A stretch of 64,000 bases of DNA, from IMG/VR virus record IMGVR_UViG_3300022074_000004, one strand, 5' to 3'. The translations under genes and the position numbers were made by a program. The notes under the pieces were generated by a model. That model searched no databases and was not told the DNA's origin. It saw only the letters and a list, made by a program, of their open reading frames with translations. This document shows positions 6,001 through 49,313 of the stretch, in pieces; the first letter of the stretch is position 1; the number at the start of each line of letters is the position of its first letter. Source of the DNA: a virus.

Positions 6001-9000
6001 AATTTGATCTCAACTCTGAAGATCCTGCAACGATTCAGGCATCAGAGCACATATATCAACCACAGAATACCAATGTGTGGACAGAAGGTACTGATGGTTA
6101 CAGAGAAACATATGCTCATGGATATGGTGGTAGTTTCAGCAATACTCAGCTTCTGCTTGGACGTGCTGCCAGTTATGACGGAGAGTATACAAGAAACATT
6201 GTAGTTAAGGGTAACAGATTATTTGTTGGTGCGCCACAATCAAATAGTTACTATGGTACTGTTTACATTTGGGATCGTACTACTAAAAATGAGATTCAAC
6301 CAATTGCGCATGCGCCACAGGATCCAGGTGGACAATATGGTACACAAAGATACTTTGGTGAATTTCTCTGCATTACAGATACTCACCTGTTAGTACACGC
6401 TACGTCTAATAGTTACAGTCAGAGTGGAGTATTTGCATACAAACTCGATACTTTAGAAGAAGATTATCGTTTAATGCCAAACGATACAATCAGTACTGAT
6501 TTTAGAAATGAGCACTTACTGCCTAAGGGAATTTATTGGGGCGATTATCAATCCATGGTTGGACGTTTCATGCAAGTTGATAATGGATATTTGTACCTCG
6601 CTACTGCAGGACAGGGTTCTAACATGTGGATGGCAAGGTGGAAATTAAGAGATACTACAGAGAATTTCTCTGGAAAAATGCCTGACAAGGTTTATTTCTT
6701 CAGTGATTTGCCTGAAGTACCACTTGATGCTCAGAATACTTCATCTAACATGAGATGGCCAAAGAATACTGTTATCAAGAATGGGCATATGCTCATTGGT
6801 AAGGATTCACATGATTCAGCTGCTGATTGGGAACGTGTATGGTTAGCAAATCTTGAAGATGATGACCTGTCAACTGCAACAATTCTTAAGTCACCACATA
6901 CTTTTGATGGCACTACAAGTTTTGGTAGATATGGTTCACTGGCAATTTCTAATAGAAAGACATACATTGGTGCCCTTGGAGCATATTATAAGAATGATGA
7001 TACTACCACTTATTCCGGTAACGTCTATGTTGCTAATTTATATGATGTTTCACTCATGGCTCTTCCAGTTGAAGATAGTGGATATTATCCATTATATAAG
7101 GGAGAGGAATATGCAACACAATCTGGGTTAGGTACTGGTATTCCAGTCGTTTATGGTGGTAAGAAGTATTATAGACCAAACTTCAATGCAGCTCCTGCAT
7201 TAGAAGACGGTCAAGGATGGTTGGGAAAAAATACAGATCCTACTGATTGGACATTTAATGGTGACGGAACAGCAACCTCTGGTGGAAATTGGTATTTACA
7301 AACTCCACGTACAGATAATGTTGGAATACTTGATCCAAATAAAGAGTATACAATTACTCTTGTTGTTGATTCAATATCAAGCGGTTTTATCAAGGCTGCT
7401 TTCTCTAGAGATCATAGCTTCAGTAACCAAATCAAATGGGACCAGCTTCCCCTTCATGTAAACATAAGCTCTCCTGGTACTTATACTGCAACAGTTACTC
7501 CAGGCAGCAATTTTGACGGATTTGTTATTGGATCACATCATTATTCTACGGCTCTTGATGCAACAATTTCAAAATTAGAAATTGCTGAAGCACCTTCGTA
7601 TACAACATGGGATGGTGACTACACCATTGATCAAGATGCTCCAAGAGCAGTTGATGGGCACTATCCTGTATATCTGACTATCAAAGAAGCTGTATTGAGT
7701 TCACCAAGTTCTGAATATTCTGTATTAAATGGAACTGATGGTGTTACATATTTCAAACCAACAGGAACAGCATCGTTTGATAGTGGTGTAACTAATGAAA
7801 ATATCTCGACACATGAGACTGGTCCATCTGTTATTGGTAACAGCTATCCAATGTATATCACCCACTTAGCATCCAATAATGAAAGTGCTGCTCGTGGTGG
7901 AAGTGGTCTGTCATTAAGAATAGCTGTTGATGGTGTTATGTACTACATGCCAATAGGCGTTAACTATCAAACCTGGATTGCTGGGGACTTTACTTCTAGT
8001 GAGGCAATTGTTGTTAATACTGATGGTACTGTTGATGCATCTACTGGAACATATCCTTTGTATACTTCTAGATTTGCTGCTGAGAATGTTTCTTGGGGAA
8101 CAGGTCAAGTACAGGAGTTTGAATATGGTGGTGTAGTTTACTTCATGCCATCAGGAACAAATGTTACAACATTCACTGGAAATACTTATAGTGAAGATGC
8201 AACATTTGAAATGCCTGGACTTAATCCTGGTACTCCTGATGTCGTAGTTCCTGAACTCACTCATACATCCATGACCTTGTTGGATGCTGCTTACTATGAA
8301 AAGTGGTCAGACAAACAAAACCTTTACCAACTTGAGGTCACACACCTATCAGATGGATCTCTCCATATAAAGAATACATCTGGAAGAAGTGGTTACATTG
8401 CCACAAAGGTCGTTGGTTCCTTCGACGGGGCATACCTTGAGATAGGAAAAACCTACAGACTTAAATTATCAGCTTCTGCATCATATGCAACTACATTCTT
8501 TATGACTAGGGCTACAAACGCTTATGGACACGAGGTATATGATGGCGGACATTTTGATACTTATGCTGAAGTTGCTATTCCTGCGGACGGACAATCTCAT
8601 GACTTTGAAGTTGACTTTGTAGCTGATTATGAATACGCAAATATCAGGCTCCTGCAACAGAGCGCATTCAAAGAAGTTACTATTCATAATATCGAAATTA
8701 TTGAACCTGGTACACCTGCAGATCCTCCAATCCAGCAGCCATTTACAAAACCAATTAGTGTTAATGGTTACTATCCATTATACTTAACTGAAGCGCATGC
8801 TAAACTTGGTGGAAATGGTAACATCAAAGAAATAAAAACTCTTGATTTTACAAATCCAACTTCTGGAAATGCACAGACTACATTCTTTATTCCTAATGGA
8901 GTTAGAACTTGGGAAGGCGATTATGATCTAGCAACATCTGATATTGAAAAACTTACTATCTCTGGTTATTATCCATTATTCTATACAGAAGCAGGTGCGG

Positions 9001-33775: not shown

Positions 33776-34005
33776 TCACCTTCAGCGTCACCTTCACGGA
33801 CATGATGCACATATATGTCATCTTCACACGTCATCTTCACGGACATGATGTACATGTATGTCATCTTCACATGTCACCTTCAGTGTCACCTTCACGGACA
33901 TGATGTACATGTATGTCATCTTCACACGTCACCTTCACGTACATCATGCGTAGATGGACAGTCTGTAAAGTGTCACCTTCATAGTCACCTTCACGTACAT
34001 CATAC
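33775..34005 (+). repeat. Hierarchical tandem array with 11 copies of GTCAYCTTCA
   Basis: Decamer starts at 33775, 33787, 33817, 33830, 33860, 33873, 33885, 33915, 33928, 33972, 33984; 12/43/43-bp sub-units form ~98-bp super-units. Confidence 0.95.
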
Positions 34006-34884: not shown

Positions 34885-36087
34885 TTGACCTTGACCCAGA
34901 TCTCATTACGAGACCACCAAGTCTCAGCCTGCGACTCGATGAAGCGTTCGAGCCTGGGCCAAATCATTATGCCAACTGGATCTGGCAAAACTATTTGCAT
35001 GATCCAGGATTGTATTGACAGATTTACACTTTTAGAGAATAAACCTGCGAAAATGATTGTTGTTGCCCCCAGAATTGTTCTGGCACAACAATTATGCGAT
35101 GAATTTATTAAATATGAAGTAAATGCTGCTGTTTTTCATGTTCACAGTGGAAGAGTACAACATTTCAGTTCAACAGATGCAGTTTACATCAAAAGATGGT
35201 CTGAGCAAGCATATAGGCATCAAATTTACTTTACAACATATAATTCTCTTGCAACTTTGGTTAAGGCAAAGATTCATGCAGATACGATATATTTTGATGA
35301 GGCACATCACAGTGTTAAAAGACATTTTTTCCCTGTGTGCGAAGTCGCTTCAGCTGATTATAGCGACCGCACTTTTTGGTTTACTGCTACTCGCAGGGTT
35401 TCTAATGATCTTCTGAAACCAGGAATGAATGACGAAGATGTTTATGGTAAAGTTTTGCACACGGTATCTCTCAAGGAACTGGTTGATAAAGGTTATATTG
35501 CACCAGCAAAAGTTTCTGTGAGTTCATTTGATAAAGTTAAAAAGGATGATTTGACTTATCAAATTGAAGCTGATAATTTAATTCAAACTATTGACAATGG
35601 TGGAAAGAATAAAATTTTAATTTGTTGTAGATCGACCCGTCAGATGATGGGGATGATACATGGAAGCGATTTAAGTGTCAAGTTGAAAGAGAGAGACTTT
35701 GATCTTTTAACAATAACGTCTAAGTATGGGGCAACTCTGAATGGTCATCGCATTAGCCGATCAGACTTCATGCTGCTGTTAAATGAATATGGAGAGAACC
35801 CTGACAAAAAGTTTTGTGTTTTTCACTACTCAATTCTGACAGAAGGTATAAGCATCAATGAACTCGATAGTTGCGTTTTCTTAAGGAACATGAACGTGGT
35901 TGCCATGCAGCAATGTATCGGTCGCGTAATCAGGAAAGGGAGGGATTCTTACGATGGGGAGAGTAAGGTGGCAGAGTTGGCAATACCTTCCTACTCTAAT
36001 GTTGGCGTGAGTACAGCACGGCAATTAAACAACATTGTCGATGCAACTTTCAATCAAGGTCAATCCTTAATCTCCGAAATTAAATGA
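34885..36087 (+). CDS. Superfamily 2 DExH-box helicase (ResIII-like)
   Basis: LRDHQ Q-motif, PTGSGKT Walker A, DEAHH motif II, TAT motif III, ILTEGI motif V, QCIGRVIR motif VI; TTG start. Confidence 0.9.
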   Translation: MTLTQISLRDHQVSACDSMKRSSLGQIIMPTGSGKTICMIQDCIDRFTLLENKPAKMIVVAPRIVLAQQLCDEFIKYEVNAAVFHVHSGRVQHFSSTDAVYIKRWSEQAYRHQIYFTTYNSLATLVKAKIHADTIYFDEAHHSVKRHFFPVCEVASADYSDRTFWFTATRRVSNDLLKPGMNDEDVYGKVLHTVSLKELVDKGYIAPAKVSVSSFDKVKKDDLTYQIEADNLIQTIDNGGKNKILICCRSTRQMMGMIHGSDLSVKLKERDFDLLTITSKYGATLNGHRISRSDFMLLLNEYGENPDKKFCVFHYSILTEGISINELDSCVFLRNMNVVAMQQCIGRVIRKGRDSYDGESKVAELAIPSYSNVGVSTARQLNNIVDATFNQGQSLISEIK

Positions 36088-45701: not shown

Positions 45702-45806
45702 TATAACACACACAGAGAGGTTGATCACCTATGACTGGGTCTCCCCCGAAGACCCACCACACACACGGAAGAGTATTAGGAGAGGCTTGAGAACCTCTCC
45801 TTTTTT
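45702..45806 (+). ncRNA. Candidate ~105-nt small RNA with own promoter and terminator
   Basis: Dyad 45629-45648 and TAGCAT at 45691; two ACACACAC tracts, hairpin tgggtct/agaccca, terminator aggagagg/cctctcct-T5; no convincing ORF. Confidence 0.5.
45778..45806 (+). terminator. Rho-independent terminator
   Basis: aggagagg-cttgagaa-cctctcct followed by a T run. Confidence 0.85.
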
Positions 45807-46290
45807 ATGTCATCTTCATTGATTCTTTACCTGTTAATGTTTTCACCTTCACTAGCATCATCTTCACTCTCATTGTCATCTTCATTATCATCATTTTGAG
45901 CATTATTGCCTACAAAATAGCATAAAAACACATTAAAAATACATTTATAAATATACTTTCGTTTTTTATTCAAATGCACTCCCGATACGCCCAGCAGTGC
46001 CTCCAGAGCATCTCAACAGCATCTAAAACACTAAATCATACTCTATATGTGTCATCTTCACAATCATCATCACATATACACATACATATGTCATCTTCGC
46101 TATCATCATCATATTCATAATTTTTATCTTTATCTTTATACCTGTGGAATGCAGCTGTGGAATTGTGGAATAAATCTTTTATCATAAACTTTTTCTCTCA
46201 ATAGTATATGATTGTAAATTTTATGATTTATATTTTATTAGAAAAACATTTGATTTTTATTTCTCATAAACGTTTCATAATGCTCTGATA
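45807..46290. other. Gene-free, AT-rich, G-poor tract with GTCATCTTCA copies (possible unwinding element)
   Basis: No ORF in track; decamer copies or variants at 45809, 45842, 45857, 45875, 46051, 46090. Confidence 0.45.
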
Positions 46291-46321
46291 ATGCTCCGGG
46301 GTCTTGTGATCTTAGCCTGCG

Positions 46322-46350
46322 AGCTTAGCACCGACCGCCCGTTTTGTCAA
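46322..46350 (-). promoter_or_regulatory. Minus-strand sigma70 promoter firing into the AT-rich tract
   Basis: TTGACA-17 bp-TAAGCT (with TG extension) on the reverse strand. Confidence 0.7.
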
Positions 46351-46448
46351 GACCCCCGCCATAAAAATTCACAAGGTCTCGGTTTTCAAACAATCCGCAT
46401 ACCTCCGAGTTTTATGGTATAATAAGCAAAAAAACACTATAAGGCAGT

Positions 46449-46491
46449 GGACGGTTTATGAAGTGGTACAGTGCCAGTTTTTTATGTGTCT
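46449..46491. promoter_or_regulatory. Tandem double dyad site 1
   Basis: GGACGGTT-TATG-AAGTGGTA cag TGCCAGTT-TTTT-ATGTGTCT. Confidence 0.65.
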
Positions 46492-46584
46492 TTGTAACAA
46501 TGTAAAGATTCATAAAATGGTAGTGAGTGACACAGCGCCACGGGCCACGGTGGGCTAGAGTAAGAATAGAGCCTTATGAGGGGT

Positions 46585-46627
46585 GGACAGTTTATGAAGT
46601 GGCACTGTGACACTTTGAGAACTGGCT
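46585..46627. promoter_or_regulatory. Tandem double dyad site 2 (contains left arm of the 31-bp inverted repeat)
   Basis: GGACAGTT-TATG-AAGTGGCA ctg TGACACTT-TGAG-AACTGGCT. Confidence 0.75.
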
Positions 46628-46650
46628 GATTGTTACAGTTTGATATAATT

Positions 46651-46716
46651 ATTTTATGGCAGGAGTAGTGGCGATTATTGTTGTCATCGAGGTTACCCCA
46701 CCTCTCGTTTGATTTG
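46651..46716 (-). ncRNA. Putative small RNA, copy A of a three-member family
   Basis: TG-N-TATACT -10 box at 46727-46722; GAGGT-N6-ACCTC hairpin; ends CTCCTGCCATAAAA; ungapped similarity to copies B and C. Confidence 0.55.
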
Positions 46717-46721
46717 ATCAT

Positions 46722-46815
46722 AGTATAGCAGCTCTCAGGGGTCTCTCAGGGCATCCGTGGACACTTATTGGACTGGCACAATAGAGGTAGCGGTGCCGCG
46801 ATCTGAGGTTATTCT
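46722..46815. promoter_or_regulatory. Bidirectional promoter centred on one dyad
   Basis: Dyad GGACACTT-ATTG-GACTGGCA (46759-46778) with TATTCT 31 bp to the right (+) and TATACT 31 bp to the left (-). Confidence 0.75.
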
Positions 46816-46838
46816 TTTATCAGTAACGTTCTTCCCCC

Positions 46839-47045
46839 ATGAGCTACGAAGTGTTTCACCGGACTTGGTGGCGGCGCAATGATGAGTGGCCTGATGGCCG
46901 GGAGCCCGGTTGCGGCCGTGCTTACCACATCGGCTGGGCTGCTGACGAAGCCGAAGCCAGTGCTATGTGTAAGGAGTGGAACAGCAAGCATAAGCCCGGG
47001 CTGTTTTCTGACAGAGCAGAGTACAGCGAGGGCCGGTTCACATAA
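46839..47045 (+). CDS. Conserved phage hypothetical protein
   Basis: YEVFHRTWWRRNDEWPDGREPG...CKEWNSKHKPG..AEY; promoter upstream. Confidence 0.75.
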   Translation: MSYEVFHRTWWRRNDEWPDGREPGCGRAYHIGWAADEAEASAMCKEWNSKHKPGLFSDRAEYSEGRFT

Positions 47046-47084
47046 GCACTAAACTTTAACAGTATTTTTTTCCCCTTTTAAGTT

Positions 47085-47348
47085 ATGAACACTGAAACGT
47101 ATGACCTGCCCGCTCACTGGGCAAGCTATCTTATCAACGGCGATGCAACGTCATTCAGCCTGAATGATGATGGCGGAGACGCTGAGATCGCATTGATTGA
47201 TGAGGTTATGTCGAACATTGACCAGAAAGGAAACGCCATCATTGATGTTGATGCAGAAGAAAGTTTCTTCAAAAAGTATCACGATGCTCACATGTATGGC
47301 GTAATGGCTGGTACTTGCCTAACGTATAAGCTGACGTGGATTGACTGA
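47085..47348 (+). CDS. Conserved phage hypothetical protein
   Basis: TYDLPAHWASYLINGDATS motif. Confidence 0.75.
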   Translation: MNTETYDLPAHWASYLINGDATSFSLNDDGGDAEIALIDEVMSNIDQKGNAIIDVDAEESFFKKYHDAHMYGVMAGTCLTYKLTWID

Positions 47349-47412
47349 TCATAAACTTTAACGTTATTCTTTTTACCTTCCGCATCATAAGTCACCTTGG
47401 CGGTCATCATCG

Positions 47413-47469
47413 GGCCACCTGACACACTGGCACAACAGAGCTTGTGACCTTGAGAGCTGCGGCTATTCT
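47413..47469 (+). promoter_or_regulatory. Dyad site + -10 box promoter
   Basis: GGCCACCT-GACA-CACTGGCA, 31 bp, TATTCT. Confidence 0.7.
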
Positions 47470-47500
47470 TTAGTTGTCAACGTTTTTCCCCTTCTGAGCC

Positions 47501-47749
47501 ATGACCACCACCGTCGTCAAGCACTGCTTCTATAAGGTCGAGATTGACACTAAAGACTCTGTGATCCCCATCATCTACTTTCGTAAGGTGAGACGCTGTA
47601 CCACTGCTAAGGGCATGGATCGTCAGCACAATCGCATCGTTAACGAGACTGTGGAGGCATGGCGTCCTTTTGACCGTCAGATCACGCGCTACACTGTTTC
47701 TCGTGTGCCAGCTGACGTAGTGGTCAAGGGTGAGATCCGCAACGCCTGA
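47501..47749 (+). CDS. Conserved cyanophage-type hypothetical protein
   Basis: FYKVEIDT..PIIYFRK..TTAKGMDRQHNRIVNETVEAW. Confidence 0.75.
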   Translation: MTTTVVKHCFYKVEIDTKDSVIPIIYFRKVRRCTTAKGMDRQHNRIVNETVEAWRPFDRQITRYTVSRVPADVVVKGEIRNA

Positions 47750-47777
47750 TCGGCTCCCACTATGCTAGGATATGGTC

Positions 47778-47878
47778 AGTCAAAGGGGGCACCGCCTATG
47801 GCCTGATTCGCTACAACCTAACGAGAGGCGATGTAGCCTCGCAGACGACAAAGGTCGCCACTGCCCCTGTAACAAAAT
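47778..47878 (+). ncRNA. Putative small RNA, copy C (with 5' extension)
   Basis: TG-N-TAGGAT -10 box at 47766; 46/63 ungapped identity to copy A over 47815-47877; GAGGC-N6-GCCTC hairpin; GGGGCA/TGCCCC closing stem. Confidence 0.5.
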
Positions 47879-47893
47879 ATAATTATGTAACAT

Positions 47894-47936
47894 AACCACA
47901 TATAAAAGTGTCACAGTGCCACTTCATAAACTGTCA
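47894..47936. promoter_or_regulatory. Tandem double dyad site 3 (contains right arm of the 31-bp inverted repeat)
   Basis: AACCACAT-ATAA-AAGTGTCA cag TGCCACTT-CATA-AACTGTCA; 47905-47935 is the exact reverse complement of 46586-46616. Confidence 0.75.
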
Positions 47937-47950
47937 CATATCTTATAGGT

Positions 47951-48016
47951 ATTTTATGGCAGGAGAGCTTACGAACTTTATCGTCTACAGGGCGACCCAG
48001 CCCCTCCTCTGATTTG
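47951..48016 (-). ncRNA. Putative small RNA, copy B
   Basis: TG-N-TATGAT -10 box at 48027-48022; begins CAAATCA and ends CTCCTGCCATAAAA like copy A, in the same register relative to the -10 box. Confidence 0.55.
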
Positions 48017-48021
48017 AACCA

Positions 48022-48062
48022 ATCATATCAGACCCAGCTGCGCTGTCTGTATCGTGTGATAC
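48022..48062 (-). promoter_or_regulatory. NtcA-type promoter (GTA-N8-TAC-N21-TAN3T)
   Basis: Reverse strand reads GTAtcacacgaTAC, 21 bp, TATGAT. Confidence 0.55.
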
Positions 48063-48179
48063 CATTTTGGAAATATGTCGAAATGTGAATTTTCAAACGT
48101 TTCCCACTAGCGTTTCGCTCTCGGTGTCGTAACCTATTGGCAAGCGGGCGCACTGAAGCCCGCGCAACCCCAAAGGACT

Positions 48180-49313
48180 ATGAACAGCTCAGCTCAAGCT
48201 AAGGCTCTCGAAAGCCTTCTGGCTCTTGATACCGGTCGCGCCGATCGCCCGGACGGCTTCCGCATGTCCGCAGCGGATCACAAGCTTTTCCGTGGATACG
48301 CTCGTGTTGTTGAGCCCGGCATGACCGACAGCGACATCCTGATGCACGCTGGTGCTGGCTTCAACGTTGAGACGCAGCCGGTGAGTTTTAAACTGCCCAG
48401 CGGTAGCTACTGCTCAACCCCTGACAGCATCGTGTGGTCTCGGGATGATCGGGACGATGAGACGGCTTTTCTGGGTACGTTCGGCAACCGTCGCGCCGTG
48501 ATCCAGCCTAGCGACTTCCTTTCCTACTTCCAACGCTTCGTACAACAGTCTGGCAAGCGTATCTCCCTAGATGTTGTGGGAACGCTTGACAATGGAAAGC
48601 AATTCTTTATGGGCTCGAAACTTACAGAAAATAACATCGAAGCTATTCTTGACAATCCTGAGCACCAACACGTTGGAATGCGTGTTAATGAGTTCTTCAA
48701 ACAAGAGGATCTATCGGACTATTGGTTAGTCGTTACCGATTTTTATGGCACTAGCAGAGCACCACAGGTGAATCTTTTGTGCAATCGCTTAGTCTGCACC
48801 AACGGAATGACTCGTCAAGTTAAAACTAAGTTGGCAGCATTAACACACCGCAAGGATCTAACCGGCGATAGTGTTGTTGAAGTATTGAACCAAGGGATTC
48901 GTGAGGCTTCAAACTATTGTAAGATCCAGGATTTGCTGACTGAAATGGAACTAACTCCAGAACAATTCAATAACGGTATTAAGAAGTTCTGCCGGGTTAA
49001 AACAGGAACTTTGGACACTGATCTTCCTTCCAAAGTAAAGGGTTTCCGGGAAACGTATCACGCTACAGATAAAGGTAAGATCGTAGGAATCGAGACTTAT
49101 AAGACATCTACAGGTACAGATAACGCCTGGAGAGCACTGAATGCAGTGACACAATATATCACCCACAAGCCATTAAAGAACCAAGACGCTGCATTGCGTT
49201 CATCAATCAATGGCACTCGTGCTAAAGAACCGAACGCTTATTTGCAGTTCCTGGCTGATAACCACGGGACGCCAGATCAGCAGGCTGAGTTGAGAGAACT
49301 CATCGCAGTCTGA
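48180..49313 (+). CDS. DUF932 (DUF945/TIGR03299-like) phage/plasmid protein
   Basis: AAGGA RBS; NRLVCTNGM signature, GTLDNGKQFF, NAWRALNAVTQYITH. Confidence 0.8.
   Translation: MNSSAQAKALESLLALDTGRADRPDGFRMSAADHKLFRGYARVVEPGMTDSDILMHAGAGFNVETQPVSFKLPSGSYCSTPDSIVWSRDDRDDETAFLGTFGNRRAVIQPSDFLSYFQRFVQQSGKRISLDVVGTLDNGKQFFMGSKLTENNIEAILDNPEHQHVGMRVNEFFKQEDLSDYWLVVTDFYGTSRAPQVNLLCNRLVCTNGMTRQVKTKLAALTHRKDLTGDSVVEVLNQGIREASNYCKIQDLLTEMELTPEQFNNGIKKFCRVKTGTLDTDLPSKVKGFRETYHATDKGKIVGIETYKTSTGTDNAWRALNAVTQYITHKPLKNQDAALRSSINGTRAKEPNAYLQFLADNHGTPDQQAELRELIAV

Follow-up and report, generated by a model that had tools for sequence, protein, structure and literature searches.

Three closely spaced copies (A, B, and C) of a short conserved element are very probably paralogous members of a previously undescribed small RNA family that is conserved in T4-like cyanophages, and the members of this family are probably stand-alone small RNAs. 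They were found in the window, i.e., the complete stretch of 64,000 nt analysed here, which belongs to a novel T4-like cyanomyovirus; hosts of the family are freshwater, estuarine, and some marine T4-like cyanophages. The 73-nt conserved core of copy A (46646..46718, minus strand) matches model R1 with 88.1 bits (E 4e-19), and the cores of copies C (47811..47883, plus strand) and B (47946..48018, minus strand) match it with 76.9 and 77.7 bits, respectively. With a probability of about 0.45 we read A, B, and C as sibling sRNA genes with different inputs, and the palindromic dyads docked behind them as a factor-dependent stop or insulator.

Extent and structure of the RNA family

Approximately 48 distinct copies of the RNA occur in viral and metagenome contigs. 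All 20 viral stretches retrieved with a degenerate pattern from A, B, and C are true homologues. Successive searches with model R1 gave 44 and 64 matches among viral and metagenome loci, scoring 61-94 bits except for two weak ones near 31 bits. Regarding complete genomes, four copies lie within 2.8 kb in G001 and one in an unannotated gap of the cultured phage DSL-LC03, at 82225-82297 on the minus strand of OR003938.1, and no copies were found in three other complete cyanomyovirus genomes, one of which is ACG-2014e-like. The RNA gene is always oriented opposite to its neighbouring genes and is situated 2-5 kb from a phrog_1574 gene and a few kb upstream of a glycosyltransferase-like gene. A sequence-only reading of this DNA had proposed to look for the layout upstream of the latter gene, and it is indeed conserved in other cyanomyoviruses. 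No match to a known family was found in Rfam 15, where the whole window gave no match at gathering score and positions 45800-48400 gave only a chance lncRNA match (E 3.7). ARAGORN predicted no tRNA or tmRNA genes in the window. In the accessible papers no description of the RNA family or of the dyad was found; the Syn9 transcriptome (ISME J 2016) could report the promoter motif.

The RNA core starts near ACAA and comprises one 5-bp hairpin with a GGU-containing loop, followed by a conserved tail of approximately 43 nt, which is C/U-rich, then A-rich, and ends with CCUGCCAUAAAAUAA. For the hairpin, 145 of 145 cells are paired over 30 distinct sequences with 23 compensatory double changes, a result equalled by none of 500 shuffles. 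The closing pair is G-U in 20 sequences and would read A-C on the opposite strand. Due to these strand-specific closing pairs and the covariation of the hairpin, the RNA strand is the one reading toward the tandem double dyads. Transcription in this direction, as claimed in the sequence-only reading, is further suggested by a -10 box at a fixed distance: TAnnnT starts at -8 to -11 of the core in 50 of 63 distinct contexts, and at exactly -10 in 40 of them. In the window the box is found at -9 for A (TATACT) and B (TATGAT); the exception is C, which has a 5' extension of approximately 30-40 nt from a -10 box near 47761-47771.

RNAalifold finds the hairpin alone, and no helix of the tail has covariation support. 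Single-sequence folds mostly favour a long-range pairing of the G-rich 5' part with the C-rich tail, and the hairpin is present in the lowest-energy fold of 7 out of 48 sequences. This long-range helix was discarded, as 75% of its cells are paired, equal to shuffles, and covariation support is lacking. Exact or near-exact complements of the RNA tail do not occur elsewhere in the window beyond chance.

An encoded micro-peptide, either of 12 residues in sense with a Shine-Dalgarno-hairpin-AUG arrangement or of 18-20 residues in antisense starting with MAG, is barely credible. In about one half of the copies, AUG or UUG stands at the sense position and AAGGAG immediately precedes the hairpin on its 5' side, and the same arrangement is known for the T4 genes 25 and 38; likewise, the antisense strand of most copies holds 18-20 codons starting with MAG. 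However, the sense AUG itself occurs in only 14 of 33 copies, about half carrying UAG, AAG, CAG, CUG, or UGG instead, several copies show an antisense frame without its start, with a frameshift or with an early stop, and the tail hardly varies at third codon positions or past the stop. The peptide readings of both strands were therefore rejected on their broken frames and starts. A type I toxin-antitoxin pair was rejected as well, since the antisense MAG frame lacks a start or is shifted or shortened in several copies.

Dyad motif and promoter inputs

MotA and AsiA are missing from T4-like cyanophages, and non-late promoters are only loosely defined there (PMC2984593). The dyad consensus is GTGNCA-N10-TGNCAC with an extended palindrome of 9-4-9. 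When the 64-kb window was scanned with a position-weight matrix, 8 out of 12 dyad sites scoring at least 14 fall in 46471-47937, and 20 sites score at least 10, compared to 0-8 in mononucleotide shuffles. The earlier claim that single dyads precede promoters is borne out: the strong singles at 33955, 39139, 42000, and 47412 are followed by a TAnnnT box 29-31 nt downstream, and for the single dyad at 46758 this spacing is observed on both strands. The latter dyad (46758..46779) is located between the divergent -10 boxes TATACT of RNA A (46722..46727, minus strand), which fits the -10 placement of the family, and TATTCT (46810-46815) of ORF 46839-47045, with a gap of 30 nt on each strand.

A dyad 29-31 nt upstream of TAnnnT without a -35 box, which we take as the signature of a dyad-dependent promoter, is found at copy A, at the ORFs starting at 46839 and 47501, at most members of the RNA family, and at phrog_5495 genes of other phages. 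The common promoter type of the family has a dyad that begins 61-63 nt before the RNA core. Paralogues differ in their upstream sites: A has the phage dyad, B has an NtcA-type box, and further motifs are used in relatives. Tandem doubles lack the signature if the spacing is taken from the nearer dyad.

Three small ORFs are situated on the plus strand between the inverted RNA/dyad units (46839..47749), namely 46839-47045, 47085-47348 with a weak DUF6926 match, and 47501-47749, which belongs to phrog_5495. The third ORF has its own dyad (47412-47433) and -10 box (47464-47469), and the architecture upstream of phrog_5495 is common to 79 loci. BLAST of the island against these 79 cyanomyovirus loci around phrog_5495 gave scattered dyad matches only. 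A dyad-like site (47705..47726, score 12.5) lies upstream of copy C, still within the phrog_5495 gene at its 3' end, with a -10-like TATGCT at 34 nt. A dyad at the equivalent position is also present in the loci L070, L074, L076, L077, and L079, and the site may merely reflect conserved codons.

The promoter region of copy B (48022..48062, minus strand) contains GTA-N8-TAC (48062 to 48049), a 21-nt spacer, and TATGAT (48027 to 48022). As judged from its motifs, copy B has the layout of an NtcA-activated promoter, i.e., GTA-N8-TAC approximately 22 nt upstream of TAN3T, and is thus a candidate for activation by NtcA. It is peculiar to the window, and a different motif occupies the upstream position in relatives.

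Tandem dyads downstream of the RNAs

Three tandem double dyads are located where the sequence-only reading had placed them. Each consists of two 22-bp dyads with a period of 23 bp and hence 1 bp between the 22-mers; the spacing of 3 bp given earlier applies to the 20-bp cores. Double 1 (46448..46492) is the weaker one, with scores of 9.4 and 14.0, and is conserved in the related loci L099 and L096. Double 2 (46584..46628, scores 18.1 and 19.0) is conserved in L099, L096, and L166. Double 3 (47893..47937) contains the best dyad site of the window (47916-47937, score 27.6) and is conserved in G001 and L166 and absent from L096. The exact 20-nt double-site pattern gave no matches in viral contigs.

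The conserved end of copy A is approximately 21 nt away from double 2 (previously estimated at 25 bp), and copies C and B converge on double 3 from opposite sides at a distance of 12-13 nt (previously 15 bp). Orthologues of copy C are present in G001, L166, and L096. A further element facing double 1, as had been noticed before, is element E (46299..46371, plus strand). It is related to the RNA family, though divergent, shares the tail ...GCCAUAAAA, and is conserved in L099 and L096 according to the alignment. Its 3' half resembles that of the family as judged by eye, and model R1 gave no match to it at E<=1. Between E and double 1, a 54-nt phage-specific insertion (46391..46444, plus strand), which is absent from the aligned L099 and L096, contains a hairpin and the extended -10 box TGGTATAAT (46415-46423); this box would be aimed into double 1. 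The region between doubles 1 and 2 (region D, 46493..46583) is a decayed duplicate of the stretch after double 2. The contig L127, which is 99.1% identical, differs at 24 positions; 3 of these fall in region D, whereas the doubles, the RNA cores, and the RNA promoters are free of differences. Intrinsic terminators (GC-rich hairpin followed by a U-run) were not found on the RNA strands between the copies A, B, and C and the doubles, in agreement with the sequence-only reading, which had seen no classical terminator for any of them.

In most phages the RNA tail is followed by a run rich in A and by a GC hairpin, which the convergent gene shares and whose T-run lies on the strand opposite the RNA. 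In the window, G001, L096, and L166 a dyad is situated in the place of this hairpin, either single or double with the 23-bp period. This layout of RNA followed by dyad recurs in these four genomes at approximately 76% identity; the dyads start 9-26 nt past the core in most copies and approximately 37 nt past it in the fourth-copy type. Across relatives the consensus positions of the docked dyads are kept and the free positions vary. The complete genome G001 has no more than two convincing doubles, both adjoining RNAs, and an RNA copy lies just upstream of three of its five perfect dyads. Downstream dyads are missing from most members of the RNA family, and the convergent RNA pair of L096 has no dyads in between, so that a double between convergent RNAs is dispensable.

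The earlier statement that doubles do not precede promoters holds only if the spacing is counted from the nearer dyad. Two -10-like hexamers at double 3 are spaced by 28 nt (CATAAT, minus strand) and 29 nt (TATAGG, which is TATGAT in relatives) from the respective far dyad. An extended -10-like box, TGATATAAT (46641..46649, plus strand), identical in L099 and L096, is situated 15 nt to the right of double 2 and antisense to RNA A. In L166, the equivalent box has kept its position relative to the RNA tail but has shifted relative to the dyads. Moreover, the doubles of two other cyanophages, L064 (position 5195) and L073 (5218), are located 31 nt before an ordinary -10 box and a gene.

According to the reading preferred here, we infer that the RNAs are expressed and that a factor occupies the dyads. 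The RNA would act in trans via its conserved tail, on mRNA or protein, and factor-occupied tandem dyads would stop or insulate the converging transcription units. The occupancy of the dyads would then set the 3' ends of the RNAs and tie RNA output to the factor that controls the local promoters. That the doubles serve as protein roadblocks or insulators is in itself doubtful; a roadblock would fit the layout. A strict roadblock rule is opposed by the loss of one double in L096, by the lack of downstream dyads in most family members, and by the doubles before promoters in L064 and L073. The -10-like boxes flanking doubles 2 and 3 also speak against a roadblock, since the doubles could control antisense promoters instead. 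Rather unlikely is the most specific version, in which one phage transcription factor activates the sibling sRNA genes at single sites and, at tandem sites 10-20 nt past the tails, blocks the polymerase and sets the 3' ends, as a factor-dependent substitute for an intrinsic terminator with RNA length and amount following occupancy. Stalled transcripts could additionally seed R-loops.

A candidate for the factor was sought in the neighbourhood. The phrog_5495 protein was rejected as dyad-binding factor: its predicted structure is confident (pLDDT 84) and gave no significant PDB match (best E 0.47) and no recognisable DNA-binding fold. Among the 30 ORFs of 33-50 kb, Pfam detected no DNA-binding domain; the matches are a UvsW-like helicase, DUF6267, DUF7717, DUF932, and weak DUF6926. 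An effector gene, which the sequence-only reading had failed to identify, was not found here either.

The flanking boxes lead to the alternative that the doubles are crossed back-to-back promoter elements, in which each dyad serves a -10 box beyond the other dyad, the nearer one may be an operator covering the -35 region, and antisense RNAs may give rise to sense/antisense pairs. We regard this as unlikely. It draws on the gaps of 28 and 29 nt at double 3, next to the canonical 29-31 nt, with the CATAAT measured from the strong dyad and TATGAT in place of TATAGG in G001, L166, and L096, on the conserved TGATATAAT at 38 nt (28 nt plus one helical turn) from the far dyad of double 2, and on L064 and L073, whose doubles drive a normal gene. 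However, the dyads of L166 are 8 nt further off, which makes a gap of 46 nt and puts the box, which tracks the RNA tail, out of phase. Copy 6721 of L096 has the near dyad only, with a gap of 15 nt, the box toward B in the window (TATAGG) lacks the essential last T, and no such spacing is observed at double 1. Chance -10-like hexamers are expected in the AT-rich flanks of the RNAs, and selection on the hairpin concerns the sense strand. Distinctly unlikely is the view that the doubles have no role of their own and that they arose, together with the inverted RNA units, as a side effect when cassettes were shuffled and duplicated in a hyperplastic region, through recombination between promoter sequences they have in common, as in PeSL cassettes. 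In its favour, inverted as well as tandem duplication is evident among the units, with region D as a decayed copy. The G+C content of the region is deviant and its ORFs include orphans, L096 shows a gap of approximately 38 bp at the position of double 3 where the segment of the window is flanked by 7-bp direct repeats (ATATGTG), and PeSL-mediated shuffling is on record (PMC2839356, PMC4122927). Mere by-products are hard to reconcile with an exact 23-bp period at three sites here and in L064 and L073, with docked dyads that are the best consensus matches in G001 and the window, with consensus positions conserved over four genomes of approximately 76% identity while free positions vary, and with doubles that are invariant in L127.

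Due to the position of the dyads, which equals that of the GC hairpin in other lineages, they might also act as RNA, with the palindromes folding into 3' hairpins that end or stabilise the sRNA. Some docked dyads are perfect palindromes, and the stretches at L096 copy 6721 and L166 copy 3584 fold with -16.6 kcal/mol and -25 kcal/mol, the latter including an adjacent small hairpin. This is nevertheless quite improbable, as 5 of 9 positions are pairable in double 2 and 7 of 9 in double 3, the free N position shows no covariation, no U-run follows, and the promoter copies of the motif lie upstream of the transcription start, where they cannot act as RNA. Highly improbable is an R-loop replication origin like T4 oriF/oriG, with transcripts priming the leading strand in an AT-rich stretch and the doubles as loading platform. 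Those T4 origins combine a factor-dependent promoter lacking a -35 box with an A+T-rich unwinding element within approximately 100 bp, and origins tend to sit at changes of transcription direction (PMC3016281). The promoters here likewise lack a -35 box, A+T amounts to 55-85% in the 40 nt past the RNA tail (62-65% in a check of origin features, which are loosely present), the RNAs oppose gene clusters and include convergent pairs, and the UvsW-like helicase gene is 11 kb away. On the other hand, neither the covarying hairpin nor the 43 nt of conserved tail would be required in a primer, the copies vary from one to four per genome and are lacking in the other complete cyanomyovirus genomes searched, and a composition profile of 40-54 kb of the window gave no origin information. 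The roles as replication primers or guides, which the sequence-only reading had offered for the RNAs, gained no specific support.

Comparison with known systems

Yfr2-5, which are multi-copy, and Yfr1 are sibling small RNAs of marine picocyanobacteria. Similar to these, the cyanophage RNAs are close-set short paralogues in which an unpaired C/U-rich stretch is conserved next to a hairpin, and each of them has its own promoter and input. Unlike them, they are phage-encoded, have no Rfam family, and lack a U-tailed terminator, in place of which a shared bidirectional hairpin or putative protein-binding dyads are found. As a conserved multi-copy phage sRNA with a supported hairpin and a long tail, the family is amenable to tests in DSL-LC03, a phage that is available in culture.

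Protein roadblocks and tandem cooperative operators are known from LacI and CodY, the lambda CI OR sites, and the B. subtilis RTP Ter sites. The doubles resemble them in that two adjacent dyads on nearly the same helical face lie in the path of RNA polymerase, with a predicted affinity higher than that of the activating sites. Unlike in those systems, the cyanophage dyad also occupies the activator position. Provided that the tandem sites define the RNA ends, this would be an unusual protein-dependent route to a small RNA. The very strong tandem dyads are an ideal bait for the putative dyad-binding factor, and the locus offers concrete handles on the poorly understood regulation of T4-like cyanophages.

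With T4 oriF/oriG (PMC3016281) the units share a -35-less promoter with a phage-specific upstream site, a short transcript, an A+T-rich downstream region, and a strand switch of transcription; they differ in the covarying hairpin and long conserved tail of the RNA and in its 1-4 copies. Similar to PeSL cassettes (PMC2839356, PMC4122927), repeated composite motifs occur among small orphan genes in a hyperplastic region, a terminator hairpin adjoins the promoter in most lineages, and repeats flank indels. PeSL cassettes have sigma-70-type -35/-10 promoters and no conserved RNA, whereas here the promoters have a dyad at -54 and lack a -35 box, and what lies between hairpin and promoter is the gene of a conserved RNA, situated on the opposite strand. 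Assignment to the PeSL cassettes, which are defined by a stem-loop followed by a -35/-10 sigma-70 promoter (PMC4122927), was therefore rejected, since the dyad replaces the -35 box.

NtcA-activated promoters of cyanobacteria and cyanophages are recognised by the box GTA-N8-TAC (used in PMC3037559), and the geometry of copy B (GTA-N8-TAC, 21 nt, TATGAT) is canonical in this respect. It is restricted here to one paralogue in one phage, and the orthologues of copy B use a different upstream motif. The motif content suggests that the host nitrogen regulator NtcA provides the input of one paralogue and the phage dyad that of others, and thus that the RNA may integrate the state of the host with the infection programme.

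Distribution and structure of the small RNA family

The window represents a T4-like cyanomyovirus to which none of 50,697 phage records is closely related, and Synechococcus phages match it over short stretches alone, at approximately 80% identity. The island under study (46.2-48.1 kb), with a G+C content above that of its flanks in the composition profile, contains three small ORFs on the + strand, with genes for a DUF932 protein and for a glycosyltransferase-like protein (phrog_1574) behind them. The metagenome contig L127 is 99.1% identical to window positions 45856-48467; 9 of the 24 differences fall within 39 nt (46959-46997) of ORF 46839-47045, a cluster that resembles either a patch of local recombination or a hypervariable segment. 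A pyrimidine-rich motif, AACGTT..TTCCCC, recurs in all three ORF leaders (46817-46838, 47060-47084, and 47470-47500) at the position expected for a Shine-Dalgarno sequence, and part of it is complementary to the small RNAs in their G-rich 5' half. Two low-complexity acidic ORFs of 50 and 49 aa (45827-46185, - strand) are situated between a + strand terminator (45778-45801) and element E (46299-46371, +), a divergent relative of the RNA family; their N-terminal FHNST..FH motif is also present in the related contig L099. The RNA locus is preceded, at a distance of 11 kb, by a UvsW-like helicase gene (ResIII/DEAD/Helicase_C; 34885-36087); UvsW of T4 unwinds origin R-loops (PMC3016281).

A degenerate pattern built from the RNA copies A (46646-46718, -), B (47946-48018, -), and C (47811-47883, +) retrieved 20 viral stretches, all of them homologues. 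The covariance model R1 matched viral loci 44 times and metagenome loci 64 times, approximately 48 distinct cores (conserved 73 nt) overall, and the cultured phage DSL-LC03 carries one copy in an unannotated gap. No match was obtained in Rfam and ARAGORN searches. The alignment is gap-free across all copies. In the 5-bp hairpin, whose six-base loop includes GGU, all 145 of 145 cells (30 distinct sequences) are paired, and compensatory changes occur in three of the five pairs (23 cells); neither shuffles nor slid registers came near this support. Due to the closing pair, which is G-U in 20 sequences and would be an A-C mismatch on the opposite strand, the selected strand is the one proposed by the sequence-only reading. 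The 43 nt past the hairpin are conserved; no supported helix was found in this tail, part of which pairs with the G-rich 5' strand in single-sequence folds. We consider this predicted family of conserved cyanophage small RNAs real and a solid new result.

The RNA genes are always oriented opposite to the surrounding genes and lie 2-5 kb from the phrog_1574 gene. Typical phages have two copies, approximately 3-4 kb apart; four each occur in the complete genome G001 and the contigs L096 and L166, and three plus the divergent element E in the window. The search gave no copy in the three other complete cyanomyovirus genomes that it covered, among them an ACG-2014e-like one.

In 50 of 63 contexts a TAnnnT box starts 8-11 nt before the core, and thus the RNA 5' end is presumed near the conserved ACAA. 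The upstream sites differ among paralogues, most having the phage dyad described below. Copy B of the window has an NtcA-type box (48049-48062), a 21-nt spacer, and TATGAT, and some L096 and G001 copies have an AGAGT-N8-ACTCT palindrome. This third motif (L096 ~6650-6700 and ~7820-7870; L103 ~1430-1480) sits within ...AATGTTAAGAGTTGTGAAATACTC... and replaces the GTGNCA dyad before several paralogues. In some RNA copies (L085 65-158, L137, L142, and L158), the RNA's own 5' start is partly duplicated in tandem (GGGGACAATCGAGGGAGG... before the core), resulting in a longer 5' extension; copy C has a 5' extension, too. Just upstream of element E, the 12-nt unit TATGTAAAGTCT occurs three and a half times in tandem in L099 (1340-1385, reverse strand), and the window (46278-46298) contains ATAATGCTC twice with an 11-nt period, both repeats including -10-like boxes.

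Single and tandem dyads

The recurring dyad reads GTGNCA-N10-TGNCAC and extends to a 9-4-9 palindrome. Since its free N position does not covary, we take it not for an RNA stem but for a putative DNA site of a symmetric protein, and action of the dyads as RNA hairpins is less likely. No description of the motif was found in the accessible literature. In the 79 cyanomyovirus loci fetched via the phrog_5495 gene, the dyad is located approximately 80 nt before the start codon, with a TATACT-type -10 box approximately 30 nt after it and no -35 box. Strong single dyads of the window lie 29-31 nt ahead of a TAnnnT box, in case of 46758-46779 on both strands. Perfect dyads of complete genomes gather in one small region (G001, 184-191 kb; G002, 58-61 kb), which looks like a local regulon. 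A dyad-like site (47705-47726) occurs inside conserved C-terminal codons (V-P-A-D-V-V-V) of phrog_5495, and L070, L074, L076, L077, and L079 have a dyad at the matching position. The phrog_5495 protein has a confident predicted fold with no significant structural match, Pfam indicated no DNA-binding domain among 30 neighbouring ORFs, and no effector was found.

Tandem dyads with a 23-bp period form doubles 1 (46448-46492), 2 (46584-46628), and 3 (47893-47937), the latter including the best-scoring dyad of the window (27.6). The related loci (539 kb) contain only two further doubles, an orthologous pair in L064 and L073, where a normal -10 box lies 31 nt beyond the double, ahead of a gene. In G001 (207,655 bp) the only convincing doubles are two that adjoin RNA copies, and of its five perfect dyads three occupy a docked position immediately past an RNA copy. 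Compared to L099 and L096, the window has a 54-nt insertion (46391-46444) that contains a T-run hairpin as well as a perfect extended -10 box, TGGTATAAT (46415-46423). This box is directed into double 1; the double would fall at approximately +18 to +62 of the resulting transcript.

Organization downstream of the RNA

Most lineages have an A-rich run behind the RNA tail, together with a GC hairpin, whose T-run is on the other strand and which is therefore assigned as terminator of the convergent gene. Second copies are followed by a perfect 11-bp hairpin, after which comes a co-directional dyad promoter. In the window, G001, L096, and L166, dyads begin 9-26 nt past the core in most copies, as single, double, or three-half-site forms; in the fourth-copy type a small hairpin precedes the dyad, which is located at about +37. 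In alignments at approximately 76% identity, the dyad consensus positions are kept and the free positions vary. G001 and L166 share the convergent layout of C, double 3, and B; in L096, a gap of approximately 38 bp stands where double 3 would be. ATATGTG direct repeats flank the double 3 segment in the window. A comparable convergence, of E and A on doubles 1 and 2, is seen in L099 and L096 as well as in the window. The RNA/dyad layout noticed earlier is confirmed and extended.

Function of the docked dyads

According to the sequence-only reading, one protein activates at single dyads and acts as roadblock or loading platform at doubles. This interpretation is borne out in part. Its small RNAs stand as a conserved family; for the doubles, we infer that they would stop or insulate converging polymerases when occupied, because the docked dyads, as putative binding sites, stand where a terminator hairpin would and surpass all other sites of the genome in strength, as expected for sites that must be occupied. 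The roadblock as a general rule is weakened by the L096 deletion, by the ordinary promoter use of the doubles in L064 and L073, and by -10-like boxes beside double 3 (at distances of 28 and 29 nt to the far dyad) and double 2 (an extended -10 box alongside, identical in three genomes). The doubles may instead be elements of antisense promoters, but in L166 the dyads are shifted by 8 nt, with the spacing between -10-like box and RNA tail unchanged. Duplication scars as the origin of the doubles are less likely, and so is a micro-peptide gene as the conserved unit, as neither a 12-codon sense nor an 18-20-codon antisense frame is conserved.

Docking to tandem, putatively high-affinity dyads is a conserved lineage-specific variant. 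An R-loop origin at this locus, in comparison with PMC3016281, is less likely. Several paralogues that have an unpaired conserved stretch in common and receive separate inputs look like the pattern of sibling trans-acting small RNAs.
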